From Patescibacteria group bacterium (GTDB lineage Bacteria; Patescibacteriota; Microgenomatia; UBA8517), in the NCBI GenBank assembly GCA_041742135.1, contig JBGSJG010000001.1, forward strand, positions 131,151-195,150: 64,000 bases of DNA, given 5' to 3'. Every line of letters begins with the position of its first letter. The stretch's first letter is position 1. A model generated the notes under the pieces. That model was not told the origin of the DNA and did no database searches. It saw nothing but the letters and a program-made list of their open reading frames with translations. The position numbers and the translations under genes were made by a program. This document shows positions 39,252 to 61,918 of the stretch, piece after piece.

Positions 39252-40349
39252 GTGAAGATGAAAACAACCGTTTTACAAAAAGATTTGAATAAAATATTGT
39301 CTATTTCTTCTCGTTTTGTTTCTCCTCATGCAGCACTCCCAGTCCTTTCAAATTTCAAGATTCACACTAAAGGCGCAAAACTAATAATTGAAGCTACAAA
39401 TCTTGAAATGTCGATCTCTGGCTCAATCGGAGCACAAACCACGGAGGAAGGTGAAGTGGCAATTCCAGCACGCGTTTTAACTGATGTTGTTTCCAATCTT
39501 TCAGGAGAAAAAATTGAGCTTTCGCTTGATGGAGAAAACCTAACTGTTGAATCTGAAGGTTTTAGTGCGCAGGTTTTGGGCTTAAATGCTTCGGAATTTC
39601 CGGAAGTGCCAAGCGCTGCTGATAAGGCTGTTGAAATCCCCAAAGAAGAGTTGTTGAATGCTGTTTCTAAAGTCATTTTTGCAAGCTCGGGGGACGATAC
39701 ACGTCCTGCTTTGGCAGGGGTTTTGTTTTATTTTGAAAGTGAAAACCTTTCTCTTGTAAGCTCTGACGGCTTTAGGCTGTCTAGGAAAATTGTTAAACAT
39801 AAATCGCCCGCAAGCTTTAAGTTGATTATCCCGAAAAATATTCTCCTTGAGCTTGTAAAAATCGGAAAAGATGCCAAGAAGCTTTCCTTGCATGTTAACC
39901 AAGATGATAAACAGATTATTTTTTTAGTAGACGATATCGTTTTATCTAGTAGGTTGGTGGAAGGGGAGTATCCGCCATACGAGAAGATTATTCCCGAGTC
40001 GGGAAGTACGGTGGTAAATGTTTCAAAGGTGGATCTGCAAAAAGCGGTTAGGCTTGCTTCAGTTTTTTCACGCGATGGGGCTAATATTGTTACTTTAGAG
40101 ATTAAAGAGGGGAGTGTGCGTGTTTTGGGCGAAAGCGCTAAGTCGGGAAGTCAGGTTAGTCTTGTTGCGGCAAAGCTCATCGGGCCCGAGCTTTCAATTT
40201 TATATAACTACCGATACCTTGAAGAGTTTCTAGGTGTCGTGAGCGGGGAGAGTGTCGAGATGCGTTTTAACAGTCCCACTGCCGCTGGGGTGTTTCTAGA
40301 TTCTTCAGATGGTTTCTATCTCCACCTGATCATGCCAGTGAAGAGTTAA
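39252..40349 (+). CDS. dnaN: DNA polymerase III beta sliding clamp
   Basis: About 365 aa with the three-domain clamp pattern (MKMKTTVLQKDLNKILSISSRFVS… at the N-terminus), directly downstream of dnaA. Confidence 0.9.
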   Translation: MKMKTTVLQKDLNKILSISSRFVSPHAALPVLSNFKIHTKGAKLIIEATNLEMSISGSIGAQTTEEGEVAIPARVLTDVVSNLSGEKIELSLDGENLTVESEGFSAQVLGLNASEFPEVPSAADKAVEIPKEELLNAVSKVIFASSGDDTRPALAGVLFYFESENLSLVSSDGFRLSRKIVKHKSPASFKLIIPKNILLELVKIGKDAKKLSLHVNQDDKQIIFLVDDIVLSSRLVEGEYPPYEKIIPESGSTVVNVSKVDLQKAVRLASVFSRDGANIVTLEIKEGSVRVLGESAKSGSQVSLVAAKLIGPELSILYNYRYLEEFLGVVSGESVEMRFNSPTAAGVFLDSSDGFYLHLIMPVKS

Positions 40350-41395
40350 TTTGTTAAGCTTTTAGCACTCATAATAAATTTACATAATGTCTTATTGTTG
40401 TTATCTAACACAATCTCTCCAGTTAACATAAATACTGGCTGGAGAAAACTTAAGTAGTTTTCGGTTTTTTCCATATACACAAGCTCGATCGCACTTAGCT
40501 CTATTGGTTTTTGGTTTAATATGTCAGAGTCTGTTATTTTTAAGGTCTGGTCTTGGCACTGGTAGAGAATTGCGGTCTTTGATGCTTGGCGCTCCAGCTC
40601 CTGAACTTTCATGGTTTTTATTGTTTCCTTTTCATTGTATGTTGAGTCGTGTTGAAGCCTTACGTGTGCAACCTCGTATTTGGAGTTTAAAACAACATCT
40701 ATAAGTCCTTCTGAAGATAAAGACAATATCGGATATCCTGCTGCATTTTTAGTAAAGGAAACCGAAACAGCGTTGTAGTCGGTGGAGTTTGGCACAAACT
40801 CATCAGAAATCAACAAAGGTTCGACACGTTGCGGTACCAGATCGCCAACTGGAAATGTTTTTATTCTTTCAAGGAAATCTTGAGCGGAGTTTAAGGCGGT
40901 AGTTTGGTCGGGCAGACCTGTAAATGGCTCATCTGTAAAGGAATATGTCTTATACTCAATCTTGCCGGAATAAGATTCGATCCTAAGCGACCTACTTGTT
41001 TCGGAAAACATAAAAACCTTTGCATTTTCTGAGCCAAAAACAAGAGGTTCACCTTCGAAACCGAAGTCTACTCCGATTTTGTCGACAGTGGATTTATCAA
41101 GTTGTATTGAATCAGACGAGAAGATTGGCAATTGGTCTGGGATTTCGAAATCTGCAAATTTTTCAAAGCCGTTGAAAACAAAGCCTTCCATGCTGGGGGA
41201 CTTTAAAATTGGAAGGCTGGTTATCGCTGGTTCATTGGTGGGAGGTATGTTGCCGATGTCTGTGTCTTTGTCTCTGTTTTGTTTAATGATTAAAAAGATC
41301 AACACTAAGGAACACAAAATTATAGTAGCTAAAAACAAGCCCCTTTTTGTAAATTGTATTTTTGAAATTTTTATCATGGTATTGTGGTCCCACAA
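40346..41395 (-). CDS. Hypothetical bitopic membrane protein, the last gene of the T4SS-like operon (VirB8-like topology)
   Basis: N-terminal TM (LFLATIILCSLVLIFLII), then a 300-aa extracytoplasmic domain. Overlaps the M23 gene by 22 nt, consistent with being in the operon. Confidence 0.4.
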   Translation of the reverse strand: MWDHNTMIKISKIQFTKRGLFLATIILCSLVLIFLIIKQNRDKDTDIGNIPPTNEPAITSLPILKSPSMEGFVFNGFEKFADFEIPDQLPIFSSDSIQLDKSTVDKIGVDFGFEGEPLVFGSENAKVFMFSETSRSLRIESYSGKIEYKTYSFTDEPFTGLPDQTTALNSAQDFLERIKTFPVGDLVPQRVEPLLISDEFVPNSTDYNAVSVSFTKNAAGYPILSLSSEGLIDVVLNSKYEVAHVRLQHDSTYNEKETIKTMKVQELERQASKTAILYQCQDQTLKITDSDILNQKPIELSAIELVYMEKTENYLSFLQPVFMLTGEIVLDNNNKTLCKFIMSAKSLTN

Positions 41396-42372
41396 TTGGT
41401 GGTGCAGCCTCGCAGTATTGACGCAGGGATATAAGGAAATTGCATCGGAATTGGTGATCCCACAAACCGATCATCAAGACCAGCTGCAGCTGGTCTAAAT
41501 TCGTAATGATCATGAATACTGTTTGCATATCCGGTGTCACCCACTACTCCAAGTATGGTTCCTCGAGTTACTGGAATTTGGAAAACTTCGTCCGTAACAG
41601 GATTCCATATGTTTGATGAAATTGTCGTAAAATGTACATGTCTGGTTCTGTAAGGCACTCCATTTGAGCATTCTCCCAATATGTCCACAAATAAGCCATC
41701 ATATCTGTCTGTGCCGGCCCATCTTACAACTCCGTCGTGAGTTGCGATAATTGTGTGATTTGGTGTTATAAGTTGTCCTGAAGACAGTCCAACATCTATA
41801 GCTTCAAGGCCAAAATGCGTCCAGCCGCTGGGGGTGAAAGGTCCTTGTTGGATCCAATAGGCTTGACCCGAGCCAGTTGTGACAGGCCACCCAGAAGGTC
41901 CTCCCGATGGGCAATCCTGATAACCTTCTGTGCCACCATCTGTCACGATCGTTCCTCCTCCAGGCGCTACATAGGCCCCAGAGTTGATAATAAACAACAT
42001 GAAACCTATAAAAAGAACCAGTACCATAGCGGCTCCTATGAGAAAACCAAAAGAGATAGTTGCCGCTTGTGCGACTGCTGCCCCAAATGCTGCGGCTGCA
42101 TTAACAAAAGCAAAAGGGATTGCTCCAATCACGCGACCCACATCTTTTAATCCTTTTGTTGCTGCCGCCCCAAGAAGATTGCCCACAAACGCTCCGAGGA
42201 TGTTTCCAATCACAGGCACAGCCGAACCCAGAGTGCTTCCAAGTGCACTCCCAATAGCTTTGGCTGTCGCCGTCTGTGCAATTTTTTGGCCAATTGCTTT
42301 TCCGGCTGTTTTGCTTATAGCCGTTTGAGCGGTTCTTTCAACCCTTCCTGGCTGCTTGTTTTTGTCTTCCAT
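41374..42372 (-). CDS. Membrane-embedded M23/LytM-like peptidase with a Gly/Ala-zipper N-terminal region, a candidate cell-wall hydrolase for the T4SS-like machine
   Basis: The N-terminal 130 aa are Gly/Ala-rich amphipathic/TM (…IGNILGAFVGNLLGAAATKG…). The C-terminus has HTIIATHDGVV…, a TRHVHF-containing segment, and …GDTGYANSIHDHYEF (HxH), resembling the M23 active-site arrangement. Confidence 0.55.
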   Translation of the reverse strand: MEDKNKQPGRVERTAQTAISKTAGKAIGQKIAQTATAKAIGSALGSTLGSAVPVIGNILGAFVGNLLGAAATKGLKDVGRVIGAIPFAFVNAAAAFGAAVAQAATISFGFLIGAAMVLVLFIGFMLFIINSGAYVAPGGGTIVTDGGTEGYQDCPSGGPSGWPVTTGSGQAYWIQQGPFTPSGWTHFGLEAIDVGLSSGQLITPNHTIIATHDGVVRWAGTDRYDGLFVDILGECSNGVPYRTRHVHFTTISSNIWNPVTDEVFQIPVTRGTILGVVGDTGYANSIHDHYEFRPAAAGLDDRFVGSPIPMQFPYIPASILRGCTTNCGTTIP

Positions 42373-42373
42373 T

Positions 42374-44287
42374 TTATCTAATTTTGGCTGCAGCTACCGC
42401 GACTTGCTCGCTTGAGATTGTTTGCTGTTTTTGAGCCATGTCTTGAGGCCTTGTTGTCACAAATTCATACTCCTCTGGAGAAGCAACAATTTTAATTGGT
42501 GCGTGATGAGGCCCGGCAAAAAGGATACCTTCACCAATGTCGGCGGCAAGTAAAAGTTGACGCTCCCCTTGGGACAAATAAAACACCTCACCAATCTTGT
42601 CGATAGCTGCGGGGGACTGGCGCAAGAGAAGCCTCATGGCGGCGTTAGTTACCACAGCCTTTCCAATGTCATGGTTTAGGAAGTCCTCGACGTCCTGAGT
42701 GATTGTGGTAAGCCCTAGATAGTATTTACGGGCCCTCTTAGCGATGGACCACATAAATTGCGCCGAGTCTTGATATCGCATCATATGCCAGGCCTCATCC
42801 ACAATAAGTAAACGACGCTTGATATCGCGCCGCACCTTTGTCCAGATAAAATCAAGAATGATAAACATGACAACCGGGCGAATGGCGTCTTCTACATCGC
42901 GTACTGAAAAAACTGTATAAGGATTTTTGATATCGATGTTGGTTTGCTGGTCAAACACGCCGACGTAGCTTCCTTTAACAAACTTCTCGATACGTGCCGC
43001 CAAGTCCAAAGCGTCAGTGGTTTCCATGCCGATAAGGGATTTGTATAAGTCTTCAATCAGTGGTGGCTCTAGCTTTTGTGTTTCCGGATCGGAAGTAATA
43101 CCTTTGGCGCGGTAAGCATTCATAAGCGCGCGGTCGAGTAGGGCCTCTTGGGTTGGGGTAATCTCGCCCATAATGACTTTAAAAAGTGAATGAAGCGTTA
43201 GAATTTTAAGACCCAGCTGATCTTCACCTTCGACATATACTTGGCTTAAGTCAAAAGGGTTAATTTTGGAAGGGGAGGACGCGCTAAAAACTATGTACTC
43301 ACCACCCGCAGCCTGAGCCAATGCTTTGTACTCGTTTTCAGGATCAATCACGATTACCTCGGTTCCAAGCATCAAAGAACGTACGCTTTCAAGTTTCACA
43401 AAGAAAGATTTTCCAGCACCTGAGGTAGCAAAAACTACCATGTTGCTGTTTTCAAGTTCAAAGCGATCAAAGATAATAAATGAATCGTTTTGTGAGTTTA
43501 TGCCGTACAAAACTCCACGGTCGCTTGAAAGCTCGGCAGTTGTGAAAGGAAATGTTGTCGCAAGGGAAGTGGTGTCCATATTGCGGCTGACAAGTAATGT
43601 ATCGCGGGCAAATGGAGCTGCTGACGAAAACGCCTTTTCCATGTCAAGAGCCGCAAGCTTTGCTGAAATTAAAACCGAACCCAAAGTGGACTCGATGCGT
43701 TTGGTCACGCTGTCAAGCTCGTCTGGGCTTGTTGCAGGAATTGTTATATAGAAGGAAAACTGGAAAAAGCGCTCGGCACCTTTGACAAGAAGATCTTGAA
43801 GGACTTTAGCGTCTTCAAGCTTAGCTTCTGTTCCGGGGTTTACAATTTTACCCCTTTGAATATCAGTCGACATTTCAGCTTCCATCTCAGTAATCTTGCG
43901 GCGTAGCTCGGACAAAATTTCCTGTCCCTCAACTGGATAGATGAAAAATGATATATCCAAGCTGTGGTCAAAATTTATAATTGGGTTTAGCCAACCCGGA
44001 GATACAAACCTGGGGTAGCCTGAAACATAAAGCGTTCTAAAATAGATGTCGTTAATCTTGACGTGATCAAAGCTTACTTCCATCTGGCTTGGGGCGATCA
44101 GATCAGTCGGGCTCATGGCGCGCTCTTCGGCGGAGTCAAAAGGTAGCTTGACCAATGGCTTTTCGGGTTTGGGAATTTTGTAGCCAAAGTAATCAGAAAA
44201 ATTAGGGTCCTGCTCTACTGGGGCAGGAGGTGTAACCGCTGAAGCGGCAACTGGTTGATTTTTGGTTTTTAGTATAAATAACTTCAT
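42374..44287 (-). CDS. virB4: VirB4/TraC-family conjugal-transfer-type ATPase, C-terminal portion including the ATPase domain
   Basis: Walker A VVFATSGAGKSFFVK and Walker B RRLLIVDEAWHMM (the DEAW typical of VirB4), and …LGLTTITQDVEDF…. The N-terminal part carries the YFRTLYVSGYPRFVSPGWL motif of Gram-positive-type VirB4. Confidence 0.8.
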   Translation of the reverse strand: MKLFILKTKNQPVAASAVTPPAPVEQDPNFSDYFGYKIPKPEKPLVKLPFDSAEERAMSPTDLIAPSQMEVSFDHVKINDIYFRTLYVSGYPRFVSPGWLNPIINFDHSLDISFFIYPVEGQEILSELRRKITEMEAEMSTDIQRGKIVNPGTEAKLEDAKVLQDLLVKGAERFFQFSFYITIPATSPDELDSVTKRIESTLGSVLISAKLAALDMEKAFSSAAPFARDTLLVSRNMDTTSLATTFPFTTAELSSDRGVLYGINSQNDSFIIFDRFELENSNMVVFATSGAGKSFFVKLESVRSLMLGTEVIVIDPENEYKALAQAAGGEYIVFSASSPSKINPFDLSQVYVEGEDQLGLKILTLHSLFKVIMGEITPTQEALLDRALMNAYRAKGITSDPETQKLEPPLIEDLYKSLIGMETTDALDLAARIEKFVKGSYVGVFDQQTNIDIKNPYTVFSVRDVEDAIRPVVMFIILDFIWTKVRRDIKRRLLIVDEAWHMMRYQDSAQFMWSIAKRARKYYLGLTTITQDVEDFLNHDIGKAVVTNAAMRLLLRQSPAAIDKIGEVFYLSQGERQLLLAADIGEGILFAGPHHAPIKIVASPEEYEFVTTRPQDMAQKQQTISSEQVAVAAAKIR

Positions 44288-45018
44288 TTTTTAGTATCTT
44301 TCTCAACCTCTAGTATTACAGGTTCTTTCTTTTCTTTAACTGCCTCGGCTGGCGGGTTATATACGTTATAATACAACTCTGTCACTTGCTCGCTACTTAG
44401 GTGGCGAAGGCGTAGTCCCAAACGTGCAGCCTGGCGAATCAAATGATCGCGTTTAGGAAAAAGTGCAATCTTTGCTTTTTTGACCACAAATTCTTTTGTG
44501 TAAGGAAGTGCCGCGCTTCTTTTAGACAACATCTTAAAAGATTGAGAAAGCCCAAGCTCAAGCGGCGAGAAGGGAATAACCAAAAAGAATCGCTTGCCCA
44601 AGACGTTTCTTTTTTTGGTAGTTTCGATGACGAAATTGTAATAACTATCCATAAGGAATTTCAGCTTGGGGCTCTGAATTTGCTTTGCTGACTCCTTTAA
44701 GTATTCCAAATACTGGGTAATGTCCTTTCTTTGTGTACGGATGACAATTTGAATCGAAAAGGAAAGACTGTTAATAAGCGCGGCATATGCCGCCACGACC
44801 GCTTCTTGCTCGTTATCGCTTAAGAGACCAAAGTTAAGCGAAGTTGACTCAAGAACAACAGCCGCCCCGCCATCTTTGTATAAAACAACCCCGTCAACAA
44901 TATCTGCAATAGGAAGATGAGCTTGAGTGGTAGTCACAAGCGGCCTGTTTGGTGCATTAAAAATTGGAACTTTTGAAAAAACGTTTTTTACAGGTGATAT
45001 TTTTGGCATATTAAACAC
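44284..45018 (-). CDS. VirB4 N-terminal-domain protein, a separate ORF translationally coupled (ATGA overlap) to the ATPase ORF
   Basis: LPIADIVDGVVLYKDGGAAVVLESTSLNFGLLSDNEQEAVVAAYAALINSLSFSIQIVIRTQRKD matches the start of Gram-positive VirB4/PrgJ/TcpF-type proteins. Its stop TGA overlaps the next ATG. Confidence 0.6.
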   Translation of the reverse strand: MFNMPKISPVKNVFSKVPIFNAPNRPLVTTTQAHLPIADIVDGVVLYKDGGAAVVLESTSLNFGLLSDNEQEAVVAAYAALINSLSFSIQIVIRTQRKDITQYLEYLKESAKQIQSPKLKFLMDSYYNFVIETTKKRNVLGKRFFLVIPFSPLELGLSQSFKMLSKRSAALPYTKEFVVKKAKIALFPKRDHLIRQAARLGLRLRHLSSEQVTELYYNVYNPPAEAVKEKKEPVILEVEKDTKK

Positions 45019-46027
45019 TCCAAACCGCGCGGTAAGGCGCGGCAGAATCGGGTAAAGCGTCTTTGGATTTTATCGCAATTGGCATTATTAGCTCCCCAGT
45101 GGTCCTAAAACTTAAAGGCTCAAAGTTTAAACCTTCCTTTTCAATTGCGATTTTGTATTCACCGTTAGGAAGTGGAGTGACGATCATAAAATGCCCAGCT
45201 TTGTTGGTTTTGAGAGCTCGAACAGGGCGACCGTCTGTGTCTGTAATTTCAAGTATTGCTCCTTCAACAATTTTCCCAACTGAATCCATCACTTGCCCAA
45301 CAACCGTGTTTGGCATAGTAGGAGGAGAAGGTGGTGCTGCCTCTGGTGAAAAGTCTGCGTTTTGAGTTTGTGGAGTCGTGCTTTGGGTAAGTGGCGCGGT
45401 AACCACTGAGGTTGTGACTGGTGTTTGTGTAGGAGGCTGGTTAAAGCCGGCAACCGGCACTTGAACAGAGGGAGCAGTTGGAACAACAAGAGGTTGTTTT
45501 TGCTCACTAGGGGCAATCGGTGCCACTGGGGTTACTGGTGGCGGCGGGGTTTCGGCTACAGCAGGAGAGCCCGCGGTATGCTTACCTCCAAGCATATGGG
45601 AAAGCTTGGAAAGAAAATCTTTCTCCTGTGCTTCTAGGTTGCGGGTGGCGTTATCTGCAGGCAAACTTTGAGGCACTTCTTCAACAGGAGTGTCTGCGCT
45701 AGCTTGTGTGTCAGCCGCAAAATACTGATCCGGGCTTCCTGTTTTTTTCCAAACAAACAAAGTTGGTGCATAGATTGACCTAAAAAATGCAACCAACCAC
45801 TGCTCAAGAGGCCGGTCTTGGATGGGCAAAAAGGCAAATGCTGCTCCAGCGACTACAGAAATCACAATCATCGGCCACTTAAAAAAGCCGGGCAAAGGGA
45901 GCGAATAAATTATAAGGCCCAAAACCGCGCCAACAGCAAGTTGGAAAAACTGCTTCAAAGTCATGTCTCCCACAAGCCGGAATTGGTAAGAGCTTATTTG
46001 TTGAGGTACAGGGTGTTGTTCAAACAT
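45011..46027 (-). CDS. VirB3-like two-TM protein fused to a Pro/Thr-rich linker and a C-terminal carboxypeptidase-regulatory-like beta-sandwich domain
   Basis: The N-terminus has 2 TM helices and …DRPLEQWLVAFFRSIYAPTLFVW…, a VirB3/TrbD-like layout directly upstream of VirB4. The linker is PPPVTPVAPIAPS…. The C-terminus (…DTDGRPVRALKTNKAGHFMIVTPLPNGEYKIAIEKEGLNFEP…) is CarbopepD_reg/transthyretin-like. Confidence 0.5.
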   Translation of the reverse strand: MFEQHPVPQQISSYQFRLVGDMTLKQFFQLAVGAVLGLIIYSLPLPGFFKWPMIVISVVAGAAFAFLPIQDRPLEQWLVAFFRSIYAPTLFVWKKTGSPDQYFAADTQASADTPVEEVPQSLPADNATRNLEAQEKDFLSKLSHMLGGKHTAGSPAVAETPPPPVTPVAPIAPSEQKQPLVVPTAPSVQVPVAGFNQPPTQTPVTTSVVTAPLTQSTTPQTQNADFSPEAAPPSPPTMPNTVVGQVMDSVGKIVEGAILEITDTDGRPVRALKTNKAGHFMIVTPLPNGEYKIAIEKEGLNFEPLSFRTTGELIMPIAIKSKDALPDSAAPYRAVWSV

Positions 46028-46135: not shown

Positions 46136-48568
46136 TTGGCCATGACAACTGAACATGGTGATGATCCGATGTCTCCTAGGCCGGAGGAATCTGAATTTGA
46201 AGCAAGAAGACTTACTGGGGAGAGAGGGTCTATTTATCGAGTGGAACTGTCGCGTTTTCCTGAACTTCTCGATCCAAGGGCTGTGGTGATACAAGGTAGG
46301 GAATTTATCGGGCAGATGGTAGACACCTTTTACGAAACAGGGGAGACCGTGAGTCCATATGTCGTTCAGGACACAAAACGTAGGACCAGAGAGAAGCCGG
46401 AATTATATCGTGACATTATGGAGACAGGCGCTTATTCTTTTACTGACGAAGAGCTGAGAGCTGGCCTAGTAGAGCGCCCACAGCAAACACTATGGATGCA
46501 AGTTCCTGATGCCTATATTGCAAGATTGTCTTTACCTGCTGGTGATCCCCAAAAAGTAGACATTGTTGACGATGGAACAAAGAAATATTGGTTAGTCGAT
46601 GGTCAACGTATGCCCTTTGCAGACAACGGTGAGCTTATGAGGCGAACAAAAGGCGAGAAGGCTGAGTCGAATCGATTTTATGTTGGTGTTGAGTCGCGAG
46701 GTGTTAGCAAAGAAGATGCTCGCAGGAATCGCGAGGTGTTAGCACATTCAATTGAAGGTGTTGGTGTAATTCTTGAAGCTTGGGATAATTTAATACAAAA
46801 AACTCACGAACAAGACCTTTTTGCTGATAGTGACGAAAATTACGTTAAACAGAAATTTTTAAGGATTGGCAAGGTAATAATGAGGGCACGGTATTACGCT
46901 GAAATCTTTAGAGCCCCAGAGACCCGAGAGGGTCTTGCGCCTGCTGGTGCTAAGCTTGAGCAAGCGGTTCTTGCTTGGCAGGATTTGCTTCAAAATAGAG
47001 CGGTTGTTGAAATTGAAATCCCCAATCCTAATAAACCAGAGGAAACTATTAAGGCAAAACGAGTCATGCCAAACGCTCACGCTTATGCCAAAAACTGGGG
47101 AATGCGTGAACTAAACACCGAATATGTTCAAAGTCGTGTTGCTCAGCAGTTTGCTGGTGAGCGAGCCCCTGAAGGAGTGGACCATCAACACTTCCGCCAT
47201 GTGCGAGATAAGGACAATAGGAGAATTGCACGGCAAGCGGCGATTTTGGTGGACCATTTTGATTTAGATGCTGCTTATCCTTTTGACCTAGTATGGGAGA
47301 GAGACGCTTCAGGTAAGATGCGAATAACGAGTGTTGTTGAGGAGGTTGCCTATGTTGACTCTGCAAAACTTACACACCCTACTGCGCGAAGGGTCAAAGA
47401 GCGTTTCGGGGATGTGTTGGTTGTTTCAGGTATTCATGATCGGAGGAACGCGGAGAGCAGGCGGGACCACCCAAGAGCTTCTGGGTCACCCGTAACTCTT
47501 TATACACTTCCCGAATTGTCGAGTGATTTTTTGAATGTCACCTCAGTGGAAGTGGTTGCTTTTAATAAGGGCGACCTTGAAAAACGGAAAACAAATCGCG
47601 AGCAACAAGTTAGAAGAAAAGTTATTAAAGTAACCATAGATCAAAGAGCTTTTGGTGCAAAAGATCCCAAAGAAGACAAAAGAGTTTTTTATGGGACTTC
47701 TGACTCTCGGCGTTGGAGTTATGTTAGAAAAGCGAAAGAGGCAGGAAAGAAATCCGACGACGACGTTTGGGTATACGAGGTAACCGGTTTGGGAGACAAT
47801 CGAATTTGGGATGAAGTGCAGGCGGTAGTTAAAGTGGATGGTGAGACAACAGCGTTTGCAAGGGAAGACATTCTTGCGATTACACCAGTCGACAGCAAAG
47901 GAAAAACTGCAAGAGAACTTATGGCTGATGGGGTAGAGAAACTCGAGGTTGCCATGGGCACAACCACAAATGCGACTGAAATTCCAAAAGGTCTTTTGGA
48001 ATTCTATGCTTGGGCTGGAATTTACGGCGAGTTTACAAGGGAGGATTTCGAAAGACAGTTTGCTGAGTATACAGACAAGGACCCTGCGAAATTAAGAAGC
48101 ATTAGTAAGCAGCTTGGCGTGGCAGTTAATCAACTTGCTAACACACACCAACTATCGCGCGATACTGTAGCTAAATTAGAAGAATACCTGAGAATTTCGT
48201 TAATGGCGGGTTTAGCTGCTGCAATTATAGTTGGTAAAGACGTTAAAACAGGCACTCGATCTGAGGAGCAACCTACTCTGATTCCTTTAGAGGCTCGAGG
48301 TAAAGATAACATATTTATACCACTAAAGAGAGCTATGCTAAAAGCGGAGTTTGTTAAAAGAAAAGAAGGCAAGCTTGGAAACGAACCAGAATGGGCAGAC
48401 AAAGACGAAGAGGGACTTTTTGATTTTATTGTTAACAGCCAAAACTTGGGGCCGATGAGCCCGTGGGACTTGGCAGAAAACGGTAGACGTTTTTTTACTG
48501 ACGCACAACTTGAAGAGCTACGACCTTTGTACAGTATTCTCTTTTTGCCTGGCAGCACAAGGGAATAA
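46136..48568 (+). CDS. Hypothetical 810-aa soluble protein (no TM, no Walker motifs), divergent from the T4SS-like operon
   Basis: Long ORF, rich in Arg/Glu/Asp. No recognisable catalytic motif. GC appears higher than in the neighbouring genes. Confidence 0.5.
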   Translation: MAMTTEHGDDPMSPRPEESEFEARRLTGERGSIYRVELSRFPELLDPRAVVIQGREFIGQMVDTFYETGETVSPYVVQDTKRRTREKPELYRDIMETGAYSFTDEELRAGLVERPQQTLWMQVPDAYIARLSLPAGDPQKVDIVDDGTKKYWLVDGQRMPFADNGELMRRTKGEKAESNRFYVGVESRGVSKEDARRNREVLAHSIEGVGVILEAWDNLIQKTHEQDLFADSDENYVKQKFLRIGKVIMRARYYAEIFRAPETREGLAPAGAKLEQAVLAWQDLLQNRAVVEIEIPNPNKPEETIKAKRVMPNAHAYAKNWGMRELNTEYVQSRVAQQFAGERAPEGVDHQHFRHVRDKDNRRIARQAAILVDHFDLDAAYPFDLVWERDASGKMRITSVVEEVAYVDSAKLTHPTARRVKERFGDVLVVSGIHDRRNAESRRDHPRASGSPVTLYTLPELSSDFLNVTSVEVVAFNKGDLEKRKTNREQQVRRKVIKVTIDQRAFGAKDPKEDKRVFYGTSDSRRWSYVRKAKEAGKKSDDDVWVYEVTGLGDNRIWDEVQAVVKVDGETTAFAREDILAITPVDSKGKTARELMADGVEKLEVAMGTTTNATEIPKGLLEFYAWAGIYGEFTREDFERQFAEYTDKDPAKLRSISKQLGVAVNQLANTHQLSRDTVAKLEEYLRISLMAGLAAAIIVGKDVKTGTRSEEQPTLIPLEARGKDNIFIPLKRAMLKAEFVKRKEGKLGNEPEWADKDEEGLFDFIVNSQNLGPMSPWDLAENGRRFFTDAQLEELRPLYSILFLPGSTRE

Positions 48569-53585: not shown

Positions 53586-53622
53586 CGAATATATTATACC
53601 AAGAATGGCGACTAGTTAATTG

Positions 53623-54775: not shown

Positions 54776-56271
54776 TAGATTATTGACATCTCGTCTTCAA
54801 AGACCACTTCCCACCCTATCTTTTCAACTTCGCTTTGTAGAGATATTTGTTTTGGGCAATAAGTTAAGCCGAGAGAGTAGGCCAACCTGTCAAATTTCTC
54901 TGCGAAAACGCCCTTTGTCGTCTTTGTTGTGTTAGTGATTTTTGAGACCAAAATTGTATCGGTGTTGTATTTTGTGATGGTTTCATAAAAATCTTTGTAG
55001 CCACAGTTTATGTCTAAGTACTCGAGAAACGCATGGTCACTTTCTCCTTCTGGGGCAATCCATGAAAAGCCAGACATTCTTCCGTCAACAAAAAACTTTT
55101 TATTAGGCATTTGCCATATTAAATAGCCACCTAGGCCGTAATCAGCAAAAATGTTAGTAGAATCATTGTTTAAGGAAAGAAATGTTACGGCTCTGTAAGG
55201 GTAAAAGCCGTCTTCGTTGAGGTGCCGCCATGTGCGTGATGAGGCAAACACCGCTAAAGCCCAAACTAAAACACTTACTAGAACTAGTATTTTATAGAAA
55301 ATATTTAATCTCTCTGAGCCCTTAAGAAATTTTTTTGCCCGCTGCTCTGTGTGGTTTAGGTATTTAACAAGAAAGGGTGCCATTAGAAGTGCAGATAGTG
55401 GTGCGTATCGCCCACTGTAAACGCCTGCAAATATGCTGCCCGCTACAACTACTACTTCCCAAAGCCTTATCTTATTTTTGTTAACGAATATAAAAGTGGC
55501 TGTGAAGGCTGAAATCGCAAAAAAACCCACGTCAAAAGTAAACAATGCCGAGGCCCATTCGCTTACTGATTGTCTGAAAAGCTCACCTTGACTCATTTGT
55601 TTAACGACCTCTTCCCAGTTTCTAATGCCATATGGGTTTGCTAGGGTAGCAGCTATGCTCATCAGAAGAACTAGAAAGTCTGAAGATATAATCCGCCGTT
55701 TCTGGAAAGATTTGAACAGAATTAACAAGGCAGATAGCCCAATACCCAAAACATAGCTTCCGTGAAGATTTGTCCACACAAACATCAAGAGAGGAAGAAA
55801 CAATCGAAGTTTGTTCCAATTCGTACGATCGTAAAAAATTTTAACTAAAATAGCCAGCAGAAACCAATTAAAAACTTGCGGGCGTACTCCAACTCTTAGT
55901 GTCATACTGGAAATGACCAATAACCACGGAAGAAGAAAATACTTAGTTTTTCCGTAGACTGAAATTACAATTGAAGCAGAAGTCAGTGCAATGATGACAT
56001 GCAGGAGCGCAAGGGTATTGTACCCAAAAAGATTGTAAACGTGATAATAGAGAAAATTCGAAAGCCACTCATAGTCAATGTACGGGTATGTCTGCATTGT
56101 ATACGAAAATGGGTTTCCAGTGGGGAAGCCAACCCTCGCAATTATTTCGCCTACACGATAATGCCAACCAAAATCAGGGTCAATGAAGGTCCTTGTTCCC
56201 AGAAACAATAACGTACCCACTATAACAAAAGCTAGGCGAAAAACGTATCGTGGTTTAATGTGGCTTAACAT
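54766..56271 (-). CDS. Polytopic membrane protein (at least 11 TM helices), a possible GT-C-type glycosyltransferase/oligosaccharyltransferase
   Basis: Many TM helices in the first 350 aa, then a soluble C-terminal domain. Family not recognised. Confidence 0.4.
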   Translation of the reverse strand: MLSHIKPRYVFRLAFVIVGTLLFLGTRTFIDPDFGWHYRVGEIIARVGFPTGNPFSYTMQTYPYIDYEWLSNFLYYHVYNLFGYNTLALLHVIIALTSASIVISVYGKTKYFLLPWLLVISSMTLRVGVRPQVFNWFLLAILVKIFYDRTNWNKLRLFLPLLMFVWTNLHGSYVLGIGLSALLILFKSFQKRRIISSDFLVLLMSIAATLANPYGIRNWEEVVKQMSQGELFRQSVSEWASALFTFDVGFFAISAFTATFIFVNKNKIRLWEVVVVAGSIFAGVYSGRYAPLSALLMAPFLVKYLNHTEQRAKKFLKGSERLNIFYKILVLVSVLVWALAVFASSRTWRHLNEDGFYPYRAVTFLSLNNDSTNIFADYGLGGYLIWQMPNKKFFVDGRMSGFSWIAPEGESDHAFLEYLDINCGYKDFYETITKYNTDTILVSKITNTTKTTKGVFAEKFDRLAYSLGLTYCPKQISLQSEVEKIGWEVVFEDEMSIIYQK

Positions 56272-56357: not shown

Positions 56358-56708
56358 TTACGGAGTAACAACGCTACCAATATTAAAATTCTGAATAATA
56401 TTGATTCCAAAAATTGTGCTAATGAGTTGGGCGAGAGCCCAAGCTGAAAACACTACAACCAAACCGATAAGCGCGCTTGTAACCTGATTCCTAGCTGATT
56501 CAGTCTGGCCTTTATCTCCGCCGGACATAATCCACTTTATTCCTCCGAGAATAAGCATAAAGAAGAATACCAATCCTGCTATAACCAAAATACTGTTGAT
56601 TGCCCAAGAAATCATACCACCAACGGTGATATTGGCAATGGGGCCAAAATTAGTTGGCGCGGTTAAATTTATTGTGTCTTGTGCAAATACTGTTGATAAA
56701 AATGGCAT
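56358..56708 (-). CDS. VirB2/TrbC-like pilin paralogue 2
   Basis: Two TM helices flanking SGGDKGQ. RBS AAGGAGG upstream. Confidence 0.6.
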   Translation of the reverse strand: MPFLSTVFAQDTINLTAPTNFGPIANITVGGMISWAINSILVIAGLVFFFMLILGGIKWIMSGGDKGQTESARNQVTSALIGLVVVFSAWALAQLISTIFGINIIQNFNIGSVVTP

Positions 56709-56732
56709 AATTTAAATTCACCTCCTTTTATT

Positions 56733-56771
56733 GGTTTGCTTTATAAAAAAATAATATTTGTTAAGCAAACC
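56733..56771 (-). promoter_or_regulatory. Inverted repeat (9-bp stem, about 20-nt AT loop) immediately 5' of the RBS of pilin paralogue 2
   Basis: GGTTTGCTT…AAGCAAACC. No U-tract follows on the transcribed strand. Confidence 0.4.
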
Positions 56772-56873
56772 TTAAAATTCAATATACAAAATCTTTCTAT
56801 TATAATGGCAAAAAAGTATTTGTCAAATTTTCAAGAAAGACTATCTATTTATGAACTAAGATAGGGGAGCATG

Positions 56874-57263
56874 TCAAGGGGTACCAACTGTTGCTAGCGT
56901 TGGTATGTCAATAAGAAGAAGATTTATTCCAAAGACATTCTCAATAAGGGTAAAAACTGCCCAAGCTGCAAAAAGTATTACAAGTCCAATAATTGCGTTA
57001 AGAAGCTTCTGTCTTGCTTCTTCTAGTTTGTTTTTGTCGCCTCCCGAGCCGATCCATGCTACTCCGCCAGTCAGGAACTGGAAGACAAAATAAAGCGAAC
57101 CAACAATTAGAATAATTGTTAACATGACGCTAATTAGCGCGCTTAAATACCCAACTCCTCCTGTTGCACCAGGTCCTAATGTAATGAATCGATTCAAATC
57201 ACCAATCGCTGGGTTTTTTATGTTTTCCCCTGGTATTGGTGCGGCCAGTATTGTGCTGATCAT
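56874..57263 (-). CDS. VirB2/TrbC-like pilin paralogue 3
   Basis: Two TM helices, loop GSGGDKNK. Confidence 0.6.
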   Translation of the reverse strand: MISTILAAPIPGENIKNPAIGDLNRFITLGPGATGGVGYLSALISVMLTIILIVGSLYFVFQFLTGGVAWIGSGGDKNKLEEARQKLLNAIIGLVILFAAWAVFTLIENVFGINLLLIDIPTLATVGTP

Positions 57264-57264
57264 G

Positions 57265-57624
57265 TTAAGTTAAACTGAAAATAAGTAAAGGAATATTTAA
57301 GAAAGGAATTCCAAGAATGTCGCCTACAATGTCGATTAAAAATATTGCTGATATAACAACAACAACCCCAATCAAACTCGTAGTAAGCTTTCCCTTTGCT
57401 GCAGCAAGGGCGTTTTTGTCCCCACCAGAGCTTATTATTTGAATTGCTGCCAAGAAGAATTGGATAACAAACCATATAAACGCAATGATCGTGATAACAC
57501 CCAGTGCAGTAGATATTACATCACTAAGCTTGTACACGGAACCTGCTCCTGGATTTTGGCCAAGTGTTCCAGGTAGCGTGAAACCTCCAGATGGAGCTAC
57601 GGGTATGTCTGCTAGTCTTGCCAT
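57265..57624 (-). CDS. VirB2/TrbC-like pilin paralogue 4
   Basis: Two TM helices, loop SSGGDKNA. Confidence 0.6.
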   Translation of the reverse strand: MARLADIPVAPSGGFTLPGTLGQNPGAGSVYKLSDVISTALGVITIIAFIWFVIQFFLAAIQIISSGGDKNALAAAKGKLTTSLIGVVVVISAIFLIDIVGDILGIPFLNIPLLIFSLT

Positions 57625-57972
57625 TTAAGGTGTTGGAATAGATGGGTTGATCAAGAAAGTTGCATCACCAAATATTATTTGGCCAAATATTGCAGCTAGA
57701 ACCAAAGACCCCCCAGCAATCAAAAGCCCAATTACGCTTTGGTATATTTTTGCCCAAGCTGTTTGAACCATTTTAGGGTCATCCCCAGCAGCCAAGAAAC
57801 TGTATCCCGCGAGGATGAAATTAAACAGGGCGTATATGCCCGCAATAACTATCAAAACGTTAAATGCTAACTGAAGCACTGTACCCAAAGCCCCACCTTC
57901 CACAGTCCCAAAATTTTGAGTTGGTTCTGGCTGATTAATGGTACCCCAATTAACTTGTAAAAATTGAAACAT
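57625..57972 (-). CDS. VirB2/TrbC-like pilin paralogue 5
   Basis: Two TM helices, loop AAGDDPKM. Confidence 0.6.
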   Translation of the reverse strand: MFQFLQVNWGTINQPEPTQNFGTVEGGALGTVLQLAFNVLIVIAGIYALFNFILAGYSFLAAGDDPKMVQTAWAKIYQSVIGLLIAGGSLVLAAIFGQIIFGDATFLINPSIPTP

Positions 57973-57975
57973 TTT

Positions 57976-58281
57976 TTAAAAAGGATCGGGAGCAGTCAAG
58001 AAATTCGTCCCACTCCATATCTCTATGATACGTATAACCCAGTAAGCTGTAAAGACCACGACAAATCCTACCAACGCCCAAGTGATAGCCTGCTTGCCGT
58101 TTGCAGCTCCTTTTGCGTCGCCAGAACCAGCGGAAGCGATCATTGAAACTCCACCTAATATAAACAAAAGGACCATTATAATTCCGGAAACAACAATAGC
58201 GGCTGTTACTAAATTACCTATAAAATCACCCACAGAAACAGATCGTCCGAGAGGAGAATTGAAAGTACTGCCTAAATCCAT
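57976..58281 (-). CDS. VirB2/TrbC-like pilin paralogue 6
   Basis: Two TM helices, loop ASAGSGDAKG. Confidence 0.6.
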   Translation of the reverse strand: MDLGSTFNSPLGRSVSVGDFIGNLVTAAIVVSGIIMVLLFILGGVSMIASAGSGDAKGAANGKQAITWALVGFVVVFTAYWVIRIIEIWSGTNFLTAPDPF

Positions 58282-58322
58282 ATTTTGTATATCAAAACTG
58301 ACCCCCCTGCTTAGAGGGTTCT

Positions 58323-58664
58323 CTATAAAAAGGTCCCTCTAAACCCAGGGACACCCAAGAGCAATCCAACAATTTGAACAATCCAGTATGCGCAAAAAAT
58401 AATTACAAATCCTATTAGGGCTTGGGTAAGGCGTGCTTTGGCGCTCTCGAGCGCCTTAGGGTCGCCCTTTGAAGTCATCATTGAAAGGCCAGCGGAAATG
58501 AAAAAGAAAAGAAAGGCTGCTCCAGCGACAAAAAAAATAATATTCATTATCCCCCAATTGAAAAGCCGACCGATTGTGGCGGAACCTGCGAATCTGTAAT
58601 CACTCCCAAGGGCACCTTCAAGTTCTCCATAGTTCGGTAATTGTGCGAGTACAGCATTGAACAT
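58323..58664 (-). CDS. VirB2/TrbC-like pilin paralogue 7
   Basis: Two TM helices, loop TSKGDPKA. Confidence 0.6.
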   Translation of the reverse strand: MFNAVLAQLPNYGELEGALGSDYRFAGSATIGRLFNWGIMNIIFFVAGAAFLFFFISAGLSMMTSKGDPKALESAKARLTQALIGFVIIFCAYWIVQIVGLLLGVPGFRGTFL

Positions 58665-58688
58665 AGTTATATTTTACTATTTATCGTC

Positions 58689-60218
58689 TTAGCTAAACAA
58701 GCCTAAGATGTTTACTCCTACAAATCTTAGCAAAAAGACAGAGAGAACTATCATTAAGAGGCCTCCGATGGATGAAAAAAACAATGCTTTTGAGTTTTCC
58801 AGTTTTTTTGGATCTCCACTTGAAGTGGCAAACATGAAGCCCGCCACAGCAATCAAAAATAGGGCAATGCCTCCGCCCACTGACAATCCCCATTGGATGA
58901 AAAATCTTGTAGTGCTTTGGACTAACTGCAAGGGAATACAGCCGATGGCTGTGTCTATGCCAAGCTCAGTGCCGTCTGAGCACAAAGGATTATTCTGTGC
59001 TGGAACTCCACCTAGCTGTCTGCATAAACCAGAAGTAGGGCAACAAAAGAGCGCTCCGTCGATATCGACCGTGTCTCCTGCTCGATCGCACAGTATTCCT
59101 CCAGCGTTTTCGCAAAATACTTCAGTCGCTCCTTCTGGGGCTTGGATACACTGAGTCGACAGTGAGCAAGTGCCGCCGTTACAGTGTCCAGAAAGGCATT
59201 GGGAATCATCAGTGCATGATCCTCCGAGACCAATTTCTCCACCACCACACCAACAGTAAGTTAGGCCAGGTGTCGCTTGAACTTCCGGTGATCCTTCGTC
59301 GCAATAATATGCGCCACCATCATTCTGGCAGCATGATTGCCCGTATGAGCCGCACCCCGCTGTGTTCCCTGTGACACAACTGCCTCGTAGCCCCGCCGCA
59401 ATTGGTAGCCCAGTTGCACTTGTGGGGTGAATCCAGCACTGACGCAAGCCAAAAAGATCGCAGTCGCTTTGGATAATGTTGTCGAGGCAGGCTTCTTCTT
59501 CAAAAGTTAGGGTGCTACATTGGCCACCTCGATTGCTACAATTAAATACTACGGGCTCAGTTTCGTTTGGAGTGCAAACTCCTGGTAGATCTACATAGCT
59601 TCCAGGAAACTCAGCACACCATTCGGAGGCAGTCATTGACCCGTTGCATCTAAGATCTTCTGTACTACTGCAAGATTGGTTGTTTAAGCAACCATCACCT
59701 TCTAGTCCACCTGTGCGAGGTATGCATTTAAACTGGATGCACTGAAAGGCTGGGTCGCAAAGACTATCTATATCGCAAGCGTCACAAATCAAACCGCCTT
59801 CGACTGGGCTAACTCTTACAAAAACTGCGTCGATGGCTGTACAGAGATTTGTATAGAAAGGGCCTCCATCCCACCTGCGCAAAACGATCGTATTGCCTAT
59901 TGTTCCTTCAACAAAGAGGGAATTGCCATTGTTGTCATTTAATATGGACAACTGGACAGTTCCTCCTGTTTTGACAATATTACCTACGTCAATCCATCTG
60001 TCTGTTCGAGGAGACCAAATGTGATACCTCGTGTTGTCTGCGCTGGGATCATTGGGTGCGTTATTTATTGTGATGTTTACAGATTCGCCAGGATTTACTG
60101 TTGGCGTATTAACTACGATTGCACAACCGGATTGCGCTGAAGCGGTCCGGGGAGCAAGGGCCGCAGTATTTACAAAAAGGCCAAGTCCAAGTAGTAGCAA
60201 AACTAACTTTTTTTTCAT
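58689..60218 (-). CDS. Cys-rich secreted protein (509 aa) with a C-terminal pilin-like two-TM module
   Basis: Signal peptide MKKKLVLLLLGLGLFVNTAALA. The ectodomain has at least 45 Cys. The C-terminus is DTAIGCIP…GGIALFLIAVAGFMFATSSGDPKK…LLRFVGVNILGLFS, the same helix-loop-helix as the small pilins. Confidence 0.6.
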   Translation of the reverse strand: MKKKLVLLLLGLGLFVNTAALAPRTASAQSGCAIVVNTPTVNPGESVNITINNAPNDPSADNTRYHIWSPRTDRWIDVGNIVKTGGTVQLSILNDNNGNSLFVEGTIGNTIVLRRWDGGPFYTNLCTAIDAVFVRVSPVEGGLICDACDIDSLCDPAFQCIQFKCIPRTGGLEGDGCLNNQSCSSTEDLRCNGSMTASEWCAEFPGSYVDLPGVCTPNETEPVVFNCSNRGGQCSTLTFEEEACLDNIIQSDCDLFGLRQCWIHPTSATGLPIAAGLRGSCVTGNTAGCGSYGQSCCQNDGGAYYCDEGSPEVQATPGLTYCWCGGGEIGLGGSCTDDSQCLSGHCNGGTCSLSTQCIQAPEGATEVFCENAGGILCDRAGDTVDIDGALFCCPTSGLCRQLGGVPAQNNPLCSDGTELGIDTAIGCIPLQLVQSTTRFFIQWGLSVGGGIALFLIAVAGFMFATSSGDPKKLENSKALFFSSIGGLLMIVLSVFLLRFVGVNILGLFS

Positions 60219-60219
60219 G

Positions 60220-60990
60220 CTAGAAAAAACCTAACAAATTTACACCAATAAATCTTAATAGGTAAACAGATAGCACTACCATAATCAGGCCGCCGATCGC
60301 CGATAGCAGTAATTCTTGGCCGCCTTGCAAACGCCTCGGGTCACCTTGGGAAGTTGTTATTCTAAAGGCTGCAAAGCCAATAAGAAGAAGGGCAATTCCG
60401 CCTGCTATGCCAATTGCCCATGTAAGAAAAAACTTCGTCATTTCAGGTACGTTGTTTAGTGGTATACAGCCGATCGCCGTGTTGACCCAACCTTCGCCTT
60501 CCTCGCAACCTTGAGATACCAATTCTGAAGCGGGGATTACGGTTCCATCACCTGGGGTGCCGTCATCGGCCGGAGGTATGGTGGTTGTTGGTACGCACGA
60601 AAATATGGAAGTTGAACTGCAAGTAGTAGCAGTAAGGCTTTGACACCCACCCCCCGGCTGATATCCAGATGCGCAGTTGCTGACTGTATTACAGACCCTG
60701 CCTACTGGGTCCCAATTGCAGGTGTATTTATTTATTAACCCGGCTGGTGCAGTACAAGGGAAACTAGCAGAGTTGCATACAGCGGTACCTTGACTGGTAA
60801 GAGAAATACATAGACTAGGATTCGTGCTTTCTCCAAGTGATTCGTCACAGGATTCGCTTCCTACTCCACATGCGCCAAAAGTGTTTTCCCATGCACATGA
60901 GAAAAAATTTGAAGATGCTTGAGCTTTCACATCAGTTGTGAAGAAAAAAAACAGAAACACTGGAAATAGTAAAAACAAAACCCTTTTCAT
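60220..60990 (-). CDS. Cys-rich secreted protein (256 aa) with a C-terminal pilin-like module
   Basis: Signal peptide. Cys-rich ectodomain. The C-terminus is NTAIGCIP…TTSQGDPRR…LLRFIGVNLLGFF. Confidence 0.6.
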   Translation of the reverse strand: MKRVLFLLFPVFLFFFFTTDVKAQASSNFFSCAWENTFGACGVGSESCDESLGESTNPSLCISLTSQGTAVCNSASFPCTAPAGLINKYTCNWDPVGRVCNTVSNCASGYQPGGGCQSLTATTCSSTSIFSCVPTTTIPPADDGTPGDGTVIPASELVSQGCEEGEGWVNTAIGCIPLNNVPEMTKFFLTWAIGIAGGIALLLIGFAAFRITTSQGDPRRLQGGQELLLSAIGGLIMVVLSVYLLRFIGVNLLGFF

Positions 60991-61009
60991 ACTTCAAGTT
61001 TAGCACAAG

Positions 61010-61918
61010 CTAAAACAAGTTAAGAAGTTCTTCGGAAACGAAACGGATAATAAAAATAGACAGAAGGATCATTATAAGCCCTGCTATGGCCGATGATAAT
61101 GTGTCTCGTGCATCCTGAAGCCTTTTTGGGTCGCCCTTGGTTGTCATTATTTTTACAGCTGAAATTGAAATTAAAAATAATGCAATTCCACCTGCGACTC
61201 CCAGACTCCACCTAATCATAAACTGCGTGAACGATTCGACGCTCTGAAAAGGAACGCAGCCGATTGCTGTGTCAATCCAGCCAATACCTTCAATACATTC
61301 ACCCGCCACTTTGGCGGCAGTATGAGTTGCTGTTATGCAGCAGGTTGGTTGGCTGTCTGGGCAGTAAGCAAAAATAATTTCCTCGTCAGGAGCACATGAA
61401 CTTCTACAATTACCGCCGGCAGTGGGGCAGTCTGCTGGAGCTGCAGCCTCACACTGACTTGAGCACTGGTACTCATTGATATATGGCGGGTCCACGCCCC
61501 CTACGCATTCGACCAAGGGTGTGTCTGGGTCAAGATCGCATTCGATACAGGTTCTACTTTGGCAGAAATAACCCAAGCTTCCCGTTGGGGGTGGCATTTC
61601 GAGACAAGCTTGGATAATTGGAGCATTTCCGCATTCTGCAAAAGAGTAGTCTTCACACATTGAATCCAAAAGCAGGTCGTCGATGGGAGGAGGGTCCCCT
61701 GTAGGTGTCCACCCAGGGCGGCACAGCTCTGCTGAGGTATATATACCGCGGGTGGTGTGTGCACACCTTCCTAGCTCATCGCTCCAGGCACAAACCCAAC
61801 AACCACTTTCTTCAAAACCACTACCACATTCTTCAGGTCCAGCTTGAGCGTTTTTGGCTCCCAAGAAGGTAGACAAAAACAAGAGAAAGACAATGAATGC
61901 CAGCCTTATAAACTTCAC
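61010..61918 (-). CDS. Cys-rich secreted protein (302 aa) with a C-terminal pilin-like module
   Basis: Signal peptide. Cys-rich ectodomain. The C-terminus is DTAIGCVP…TTKGDPKR…IIRFVSEELLNLF. Confidence 0.6.
   Translation of the reverse strand: MKFIRLAFIVFLLFLSTFLGAKNAQAGPEECGSGFEESGCWVCAWSDELGRCAHTTRGIYTSAELCRPGWTPTGDPPPIDDLLLDSMCEDYSFAECGNAPIIQACLEMPPPTGSLGYFCQSRTCIECDLDPDTPLVECVGGVDPPYINEYQCSSQCEAAAPADCPTAGGNCRSSCAPDEEIIFAYCPDSQPTCCITATHTAAKVAGECIEGIGWIDTAIGCVPFQSVESFTQFMIRWSLGVAGGIALFLISISAVKIMTTKGDPKRLQDARDTLSSAIAGLIMILLSIFIIRFVSEELLNLF

Follow-up and report, generated by a model that had tools for sequence, protein, structure and literature searches.

An origin-proximal gene cluster of a Microgenomatia bacterium, probably a lineage-typical type IV secretion system, and its ordered array of VirB2-like pilin genes

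Beside the replication origin of a Microgenomatia bacterium (Patescibacteria group bacterium, assembly GCA_041742135.1, contig JBGSJG010000001.1, positions 131,151 to 195,150 of the forward strand) lies a cluster of genes resembling a minimal type IV secretion system (T4SS), which occupies positions 40346–61918 of the 64-kb window analysed here; the window is the whole stretch of DNA considered, and the presence or absence of genes is reported for this window. The components of the cluster, their conservation in related genomes and the possible role of the apparatus are the focus of the present report, which follows up an earlier description made from the letters of the DNA (hereafter, the original prediction); all the open reading frames (ORFs) of the block were found where that description had placed them.

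The secretion core

The VirB4 ATPase (42374–44287, minus strand), which is of the monoderm CD1110/MPF_FATA type (MPF, mating-pair formation), comprises the central and C-terminal domains of the family. It scores 374.6 bits against NF045971 (VirB4-like conjugal transfer ATPase, CD1110 family; cut-off 325) over model positions 174–735 of 752, so that the N-terminus is missing; it also matches PF19044 (8e-32), and both its Walker A (GAGKS) and Walker B (LLIVDEAW) motifs are intact. The best solved relative is a Firmicute VirB4 (4AG5, 3.6e-46), TrwK being matched only at 7.6e-7; PrgJ of pCF10 is matched at 2e-39, and the nearest genome matches, 70–78% identical, belong to metagenome-assembled genomes (MAGs) of Ca. 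Woesebacteria, Microgenomates and Patescibacteria. A split VirB4 had been part of the original prediction, and the split is indeed real, since the TrsD-like protein encoded at 44284–45018 (minus strand), a detached N-terminal VirB4 domain, matches TrsD (NF041427, 9.5e-7) and aligns also to positions 129–233 of the VirB4_plasma model. The two genes overlap by 4 bp, and the same division is kept in nine related loci, in which the TrsD-like protein is 44–63% identical; the orthologue in the related locus L012 carries a TraC-like domain (PF26593).

The proposed VirB3-like protein is equally well recognised: the product of 45011–46027 (minus strand) is a PrgI/VirB3 homologue which matches PF12666 (PrgI) over residues 6–85 at 34.4 bits (gathering cut-off 27) and, over residues 241–299, PF13620 (CarboxypepD_reg) at 30.1 bits. 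At about three times the length of the PrgI of pCF10, it is composed of two transmembrane (TM) helices, a Pro/Thr/Ala-rich linker and a CarboxypepD_reg-like beta-sandwich domain; the length of this extension is kept in relatives, whose whole proteins have about 340–380 residues.

The three remaining membrane proteins of the core are more difficult to name. In the PrgK (VirB1-function) position, a membrane-anchored M23-like peptidoglycan peptidase is encoded at 41374–42372 (minus strand), with a Gly/Ala-rich hydrophobic N-terminus and a visible "HDH" motif; the M23 hydrolase of the original prediction finds support in relatives, six of which (L002, L004, L007, L008, L010 and L011) encode larger M23 proteins at the same position, whereas the match of the window's own protein to PF01551 is sub-threshold. 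In the PrgH/VirB6 position lies a polytopic membrane protein of 544 residues (48638–50272, minus strand), with a signal peptide, an extracellular N-terminal domain of about 150 residues and at least six hydrophobic segments, which is kept in 22 metagenome and eight genome loci, always beside the cluster; no TrbL/VirB6 match was found by Pfam in nine members of its family, and both an hhalign comparison with PrgH of pCF10 and a profile search of the PDB were negative. The PrgL/VirB8 position is taken by a bitopic protein of 349 residues (40346–41395, minus strand) with a single TM segment at residues 19–37, for which no Pfam match, no PDB profile match and no hhalign match to PrgL were obtained, and for which a homologue search in 5.8 billion proteins returned only the protein itself; relatives carry bitopic proteins of 160–360 residues at this position, three of which align weakly with it. 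The original assignments of a VirB6-like and a VirB8-topology protein agree with topology and gene order and find no counterpart among hidden Markov models (HMMs); both names rest on membrane topology and on an order collinear with prgH-I-J-K-L of pCF10 only.

The pilin array and the variable proteins

Ten VirB2-like pilin modules had been proposed, and all ten match the pilin family model PF18895 (cut-off 26.6), six over the cut-off and four under it; they lie 9–18 kb from virB4, share a TM-GDPK-TM signature and are 19–37% identical to the first module. Three class-1 pilins come first in the array (58689–60218, 60220–60990 and 61010–61918, minus strand), each with a Sec signal peptide, a hypervariable Cys-rich head, a "TAIGC[IV]P" motif and the pilin module, which is matched by PF18895 over the C-terminal residues, about 60 in number. 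The three heads (404, 151 and 197 residues, 8–10% Cys) have no detectable mutual similarity, while the modules that anchor them are 44–46% identical to each other; such variable heads on conserved anchors form an adhesin-like pattern of diversification. Next come, all on the minus strand, the short pilins of class 2 (58323–58664), class 3 (57976–58281), class 4 (57625–57972), class 5 (57265–57624) and class 6 (56874–57263), which were assigned by PF18895 (22–36 bits), positional orthology and alignment, and then class 7 (56358–56708, 41 bits), the candidate major subunit, and class 8 (53623–53961, 44.5 bits).

The meaning of these classes emerges from metagenome contigs, in which a search for the class-1 "TAIGC[IV]P" motif gave 80 loci and 437 pilin-module ORFs. 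The commonest array is one of eight tandem genes, and in 89% of comparisons the best BLASTP match of a pilin at a given position lies at the same position in the other eight-gene arrays; the eight pilins are therefore ancient, ordered classes of paralogues, the window having three class-1 genes and then one of each class from 2 to 8. The window's own class-7 pilin finds its best matches at position 7 in 33 of 34 arrays, and its class-8 pilin at position 8 in 32 of 34. Long N-terminal extensions (>100 residues) are found in 42 of the metagenome pilin ORFs; these lie first in the array, and 93% of them have the TAIGC motif.

Class 7 is distinguished in two further ways. It is the most conserved of the classes (median identity 65.5%), and in front of its gene in the window stands a sigma-70 promoter that matches the consensus at 12 of 12 positions, TTGACA-16-TATAAT (56799–56826, minus strand); of 32 non-redundant arrays, 91% have a promoter of at least 10/12 in front of the class-7 gene, the corresponding values for the other classes being 0–31%. 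Class 7 is probably the major subunit. The members of such arrays have been suggested to be interchangeable variants (PMC12102498, in its treatment of the arrays); at the level of sequence, the patterns described above argue instead for one major pilin, several minor ones and one variable, exposed subunit. As to the origin of the module, nine of the ten align over nearly the full length of NF045849 (Mbov_0395 pilin-like conjugal transfer protein) with E-values from 7e-7 to 0.05, all below the cut-off of 40 bits, a result which hints that the VirB2-like module may have belonged to monoderm MPF_FATA systems from the start, with no borrowing from diderm ones.

The giant Cys-rich secreted protein of the original prediction (50301–53585, minus strand) is confirmed as a protein of 1094 residues with a signal peptide and 31 Cys; in the predicted model its N-terminal part is a TIM barrel resembling glycoside hydrolase clan A (GH-A), and its C-terminus varies among lineages. 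It has more than 160 homologues, which conserve the N-terminal portion (about 890 residues), including a G-x-NEP motif that never varies and a TEFG motif that almost never does, and 32 of the 80 metagenome loci have a member of the family linked to the cluster. A Foldseek search of the model against the PDB returned generic TIM-barrel matches only; the GH-A motifs stand in reversed order in the predicted barrel (TEFG at about 149–153, NEP at 310–312), which suggests a circular permutation. Among the 120 homologues listed, 19 end in an SLT_3 lysozyme domain and 4 in a GDSL lipase domain, to neither of which the C-terminus of the window's protein aligns. An identification of this C-terminus as SLT_3 was considered and rejected: BLAST gave no alignment, and a "HES" motif where a helix ends is the only hint of a lysozyme-like fold.

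The block had been described as lying on one strand; this description overlooked two genes on the other, a methyltransferase gene dealt with below and the gene of a soluble orphan protein of 810 residues (46136–48568, plus strand), which occupies a positionally conserved slot between the VirB6-position gene and that of PrgI. One or two opposite-strand ORFs of 518–925 residues fill this slot in all 15 loci that cover the site (L001, L003–L007, L010, L012, L021, L036, L058, L067, L080, L081 and L083). Their products are soluble, rich in charged residues (27–34%), net acidic, almost free of Cys and without a P-loop, and they form at least eight groups, between which even profile-to-profile comparison gave no alignment; the view that they form a single diverged family was unsupported by HMM, phmmer or hhalign comparisons, and no Pfam domain was found in the 16 slot proteins examined. 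The protein of the window has a confident predicted fold with no neighbour in the PDB, and several of the others end in Arg/Lys-rich tails. The slot proteins could be cargo of the machine or a factor of host specificity.

Chromosomal setting and distribution of the cluster

The original prediction had also placed the block next to dnaN and in the core chromosome, as opposed to an integrative and conjugative element (ICE) or a plasmid, and had proposed a comparison of synteny. The adjacency is exact, the 3' end of dnaN overlapping the last gene of the cluster by 4 bp in convergent orientation, and nine related loci likewise have dnaN next to the cluster. The same order of genes (pilins, 1094-residue protein, polytopic protein, opposite-strand ORF, PrgI, TrsD-like protein, VirB4, M23 protein, bitopic protein, dnaN, dnaA, rnpA, yidC, jag) is shared by Woesebacteria/Microgenomatia MAGs, and synteny beside dnaN/dnaA is found also in dozens of metagenome contigs; because this order recurs in the loci of relatives, where the flanking housekeeping genes also keep their arrangement from one genus to another, the cluster is to be regarded as vertically inherited core chromosome.

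The dnaA (37716–39095) and dnaN (39252–40349) genes, both on the plus strand and identified by translation, provide the origin context and lie outside the machine itself; together with rnpA, yidC and jag, which lie upstream of dnaA, they bracket the minimum of the cumulative GC skew at 36–38 kb of the window. The only two perfect DnaA boxes of the window, at 37673 and 39011, flank dnaA; DnaA boxes are not enriched over the window as a whole (18 observed, 14.9 expected), and they are informative by their position beside dnaA only. The cluster, about 21 kb long, lies on the lagging strand, head-on to replication and immediately beside the origin (about 37.5 kb); the GC skew is positive over 38–48 kb, with the exception of 41–44 kb, while most genes are on the minus strand. 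The head-on orientation is kept in relatives and is unusual for genes supposed to be both highly expressed and essential.

With regard to missing functions, the original prediction is confirmed within the window, where Pfam and NCBIfam searches of the larger ORFs revealed no VirD4, VirB11, relaxase or integrase, and where the sole tRNA gene (tRNA-Cys, at 13515) does not flank the cluster. Searches with PcfC (VirD4) and PcfG (relaxase) of pCF10 gave no homologue in the window or in any of the related loci fetched; no cluster protein matches a VirB7, VirB9 or VirB10 family in Pfam or NCBIfam, and no CedA-like match was found among the cluster proteins.

At the other end of the cluster, just outside the block as originally delimited, a SpoIID-like protein with a coiled-coil N-terminus (PF08486, 3.8e-14) is encoded at 61969–63648 on the plus strand. 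Its gene adjoins the pilin array, on the opposite strand and in divergent orientation, in 59 of the 80 metagenome loci; it is a conserved boundary gene which may belong to the system, possibly with a role in wall remodelling. Membership is doubtful for the two genes inserted between pilin classes 7 and 8, where the GC content falls to about 0.38–0.39: that of an S-adenosylmethionine-dependent methyltransferase (54032–54775, plus strand; PF08241, 1.6e-20) and that of a polytopic membrane protein of 501 residues without a family match (54766–56271, minus strand). A homologue of the latter adjoins the class-8 pilin in the related locus L003; other arrays have different insertions or none (L012 carries an acyltransferase, AbiEii and a glycosyltransferase). 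Two competence-related genes on the minus strand, dprA (14480–15358) and that of a ComM-like Mg-chelatase ATPase (17040–18566), lie about 25 kb from the cluster and are unlinked to the T4SS here.

Role of the apparatus and comparison with known systems

A description of this composition as poorly characterised, as given in the original prediction, is overstated. In Southlakia epibionticum, transposon insertion sequencing identified a T4SS cluster (SEML1_0006-0019), including a series of pilins, as essential for epibiotic growth; the authors remarked on its Gram-positive-like composition, on pilins that had not been expected and on the failure to recognise any coupling or relaxase protein (Wang et al. 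2023, PMC10633639). The same type of system is itself the subject of a survey (Quinonero-Coronel et al. 2025, PMC12102498), according to whose account VirB4 homologues occur in 2,417 of 3,035 Patescibacteria genomes (about 80%), nearly all of them (2,425 VirB4 proteins of 2,407 assemblies) forming one clade nested in MPF_FATA; TrsD lies beside virB4 in 1,664 cases, PrgI/VirB3 is present, VirB6 was seldom found in Microgenomatia, "suggesting extreme sequence divergence", VirB8 is almost undetectable, and M23 and lysozyme enzymes replace VirB1. The survey further counts 441 arrays of 2–11 VirB2-like genes, most notably among Microgenomatia and Saccharimonadia, relaxases in only 103 of the 3,035 genomes and VirD4-like homologues in 2,918, mostly far from virB4, and names dnaA, dnaN and rnpA as typical neighbours in Paceibacteria and Microgenomatia. 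In a review of December 2025 the system figures as an accepted recent addition to the T4SS superfamily and as the only T4SS reported to be essential for the growth of its bearer (PMC12857230). Composition, missing relaxase, pilin arrays and origin-proximal site are, in other words, already published, and the locus is ordinary for its lineage. The non-conjugative, host-interaction role originally proposed is the published reading as well (PMC10633639 and PMC12102498, in the parts that deal with function), and agrees with the absence of relaxase and coupling protein from the window and from related loci.

With a probability of roughly 0.8, we read the locus as the lineage-typical, chromosomally fixed T4SS of Microgenomatia (Woesebacteria-like), belonging to a clade derived from the conjugation machines of monoderm MPF_FATA type, and probably forming a pilin filament or conduit for contact with a host and not for conjugation. 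By analogy with the VirB/Trw and Prg/Pcf systems, VirB4 and the N-terminal domain split from it, docked by VirB3 and the polytopic protein, would pull pilins from the membrane and polymerise a filament or conduit across the wall, which would be opened by the M23 peptidase together with the secreted TIM-barrel enzyme and, perhaps, SpoIID. The filament would be built from the eight non-redundant classes of pilin, with class 7 as the putative bulk subunit because of its own strong promoter and its highest conservation, and with the Cys-rich heads of class 1 as the exposed element that would contact the host. On the same analogy, the apparatus would serve host-cell contact, probably with an exchange of macromolecules, and not conjugation.

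Several points weigh against this reading. We know of no pilus or conduit that has been seen for any Patescibacteria T4SS, and "pilin" is here a label of homology. The VirB6 and VirB8 roles are without HMM or profile support, and the M23 match to PF01551, at 23.4 bits, is under the gathering cut-off of 28.7; the statistics of the pilin classes come from loci picked by the class-1 motif and describe one broad clade only. Head-on transcription sits badly with the simple idea that genes are placed near oriC for high expression. Finally, the absence of VirD4 and relaxase applies to the window only; Patescibacteria genomes often have VirD4-like genes at other places, as the survey figures indicate (PMC12102498), and such a gene may lie outside the window in this genome too.

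Three other explanations have to be set against the same evidence. The apparatus could be a surface fibre that merely tethers the cell to its host and transports nothing, as might be expected of a cluster without a coupling protein, the VirD4 of the Agrobacterium tumefaciens VirB system being dispensable for pilus production and required for substrate transfer, and of Cys-rich variable heads that resemble adhesins. We consider this unlikely: Saccharibacteria already adhere by means of type IV pili, as reported in PMC9894109 and PMC12206443, and yet the T4SS is separately essential, while transporting T4SSs without a type IV coupling protein (T4CP) do exist, such as Ptl, Brucella VirB and ComB (see PMC12102498). 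Moreover, the cluster retains a full translocon set together with dedicated hydrolases. An import machine, taking up host DNA or other macromolecules to feed a cell unable to make nucleotides, would have its models in Helicobacter pylori ComB and archaeal Ced, which also lack relaxase and coupling protein. This explanation, somewhat less probable still in our estimation, is the one favoured by Quinonero-Coronel et al. (PMC12102498); VirB4 does match CedB (1.6e-12) and CedD (29.4 bits, 3e-7; cut-off 600), only weakly, however, the CedB score of 46.9 bits being far under the cut-off of 700. ComB-type VirB7, VirB9 and VirB10 are absent from the cluster, and the dprA and comM-like genes, which at 14.5–18.6 kb are at least within the window, lie 25 kb off, among housekeeping genes; in Southlakia, transformation depends on comEC, which is itself dispensable for growth (PMC10633639, PMC12857230).

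Conjugation in a cryptic form, with a divergent relaxase, oriT and coupling protein encoded elsewhere or present in unrecognised guise, for instance as the 810-residue orphan, is the least likely of the three, and very improbable, because of the fixed chromosomal site and of the lack of a relaxase and T4CP both here and in relatives. It can appeal to the conjugative lineage of VirB4, PrgI and TrsD, to the wide occurrence of VirD4-like genes in the phylum (PMC12102498) and to the unannotated state of the orphan. The orphan family, however, has neither a P-loop nor His-rich, HUH-like invariant residues and is unlike any relaxase, Rep or ATPase fold; in different genera the locus keeps its fixed place beside dnaN, it has neither an integrase nor repeats nor a tRNA at its boundary, and relaxases are as rare in the phylum as the survey quoted above reports.

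Within the preferred reading, that of a host-contact T4SS, a more specific proposal can be made tentatively, the odds being somewhat unfavourable to it as a whole: the array would be an ordered set of eight ancient, non-redundant classes building a heteromeric, wall-spanning filament, in which promoter-boosted class 7 provides the bulk, six classes are minor and the exposed class 1 sets host specificity, and of which the secreted TIM-barrel protein and the slot proteins could be cargo or tools. The Patescibacteria T4SS matters, being reported as essential and having been found in about 80% of the surveyed genomes of a large and mostly uncultivated radiation (PMC12857230, PMC12102498). To the basic picture of the system this locus adds nothing; the parts worth following are the order of the pilin classes, the class-7 promoter and the three hot spots of diversification. 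For work in the tractable Saccharibacteria, the fixed pilin classes, the promoter-marked class 7, the Cys-rich heads, the polymorphism of the enzyme C-terminus and the hypervariable cytoplasmic slot offer handles, which point to a pilin for labelling in cryo-electron tomography, to domains that may govern host range and to candidate cargo proteins.

Among systems of known function, the ComB system of H. pylori and the Ptl system of Bordetella share with the cluster a chromosomal VirB2/VirB3/VirB4 core (with VirB6, for which the cluster has the polytopic candidate), the lack of relaxase and coupling protein and a task that is probably non-conjugative here as it is there; they are, however, diderm machines that include VirB7, VirB9 and VirB10 and have only one pilin, and the window is without those outer-membrane parts. 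The Prg/Pcf system of Enterococcus faecalis pCF10 is likewise monoderm, without VirB7/VirB9/VirB10, and has the same order of a polytopic protein in the VirB6 position, PrgI, VirB4, wall hydrolase and bitopic protein; in contrast to the cluster, it is plasmid-borne, includes PcfC (VirD4), the relaxase PcfG, an origin of transfer (oriT) and LPXTG adhesins, and has no pilins. Its VirB4 is a single polypeptide, whereas that of the window is split, and its hydrolase combines lysozyme and CHAP domains where the window has M23. A link to the ICEs of Mycoplasma (Mbov_0395, pilin-like, and Mbov_0397, VirB4) is given by the alignment of the pilins to NF045849 and by the match of the TrsD-like protein and VirB4 to NF045975, below the cut-off of 590 bits. 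Mycoplasma ICEs are mobile and have one pilin-like gene, in place of the ordered array of the window.

The closest likeness is to the Patescibacteria clade itself, as described in PMC12102498 and PMC10633639, with which the cluster has in common an MPF_FATA VirB4, an adjacent TrsD-like gene, PrgI/VirB3, a peptidase instead of the classical VirB1, a divergent tandem array of VirB2-like genes, the absence of relaxase and T4CP from the cluster and a chromosomal site near dnaA, dnaN and rnpA. In the Microgenomatia version seen in the window, the VirB6- and VirB8-position proteins are undetectable by HMM, and the opposite-strand orphan and the 1094-residue TIM-barrel protein are carried in addition, neither of which, to our knowledge, is discussed in these two papers. 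Where the Southlakia cluster has six pilins (PMC10633639), the modules of the window number ten, three of which belong to copies of the class-1 gene with large Cys-rich heads.

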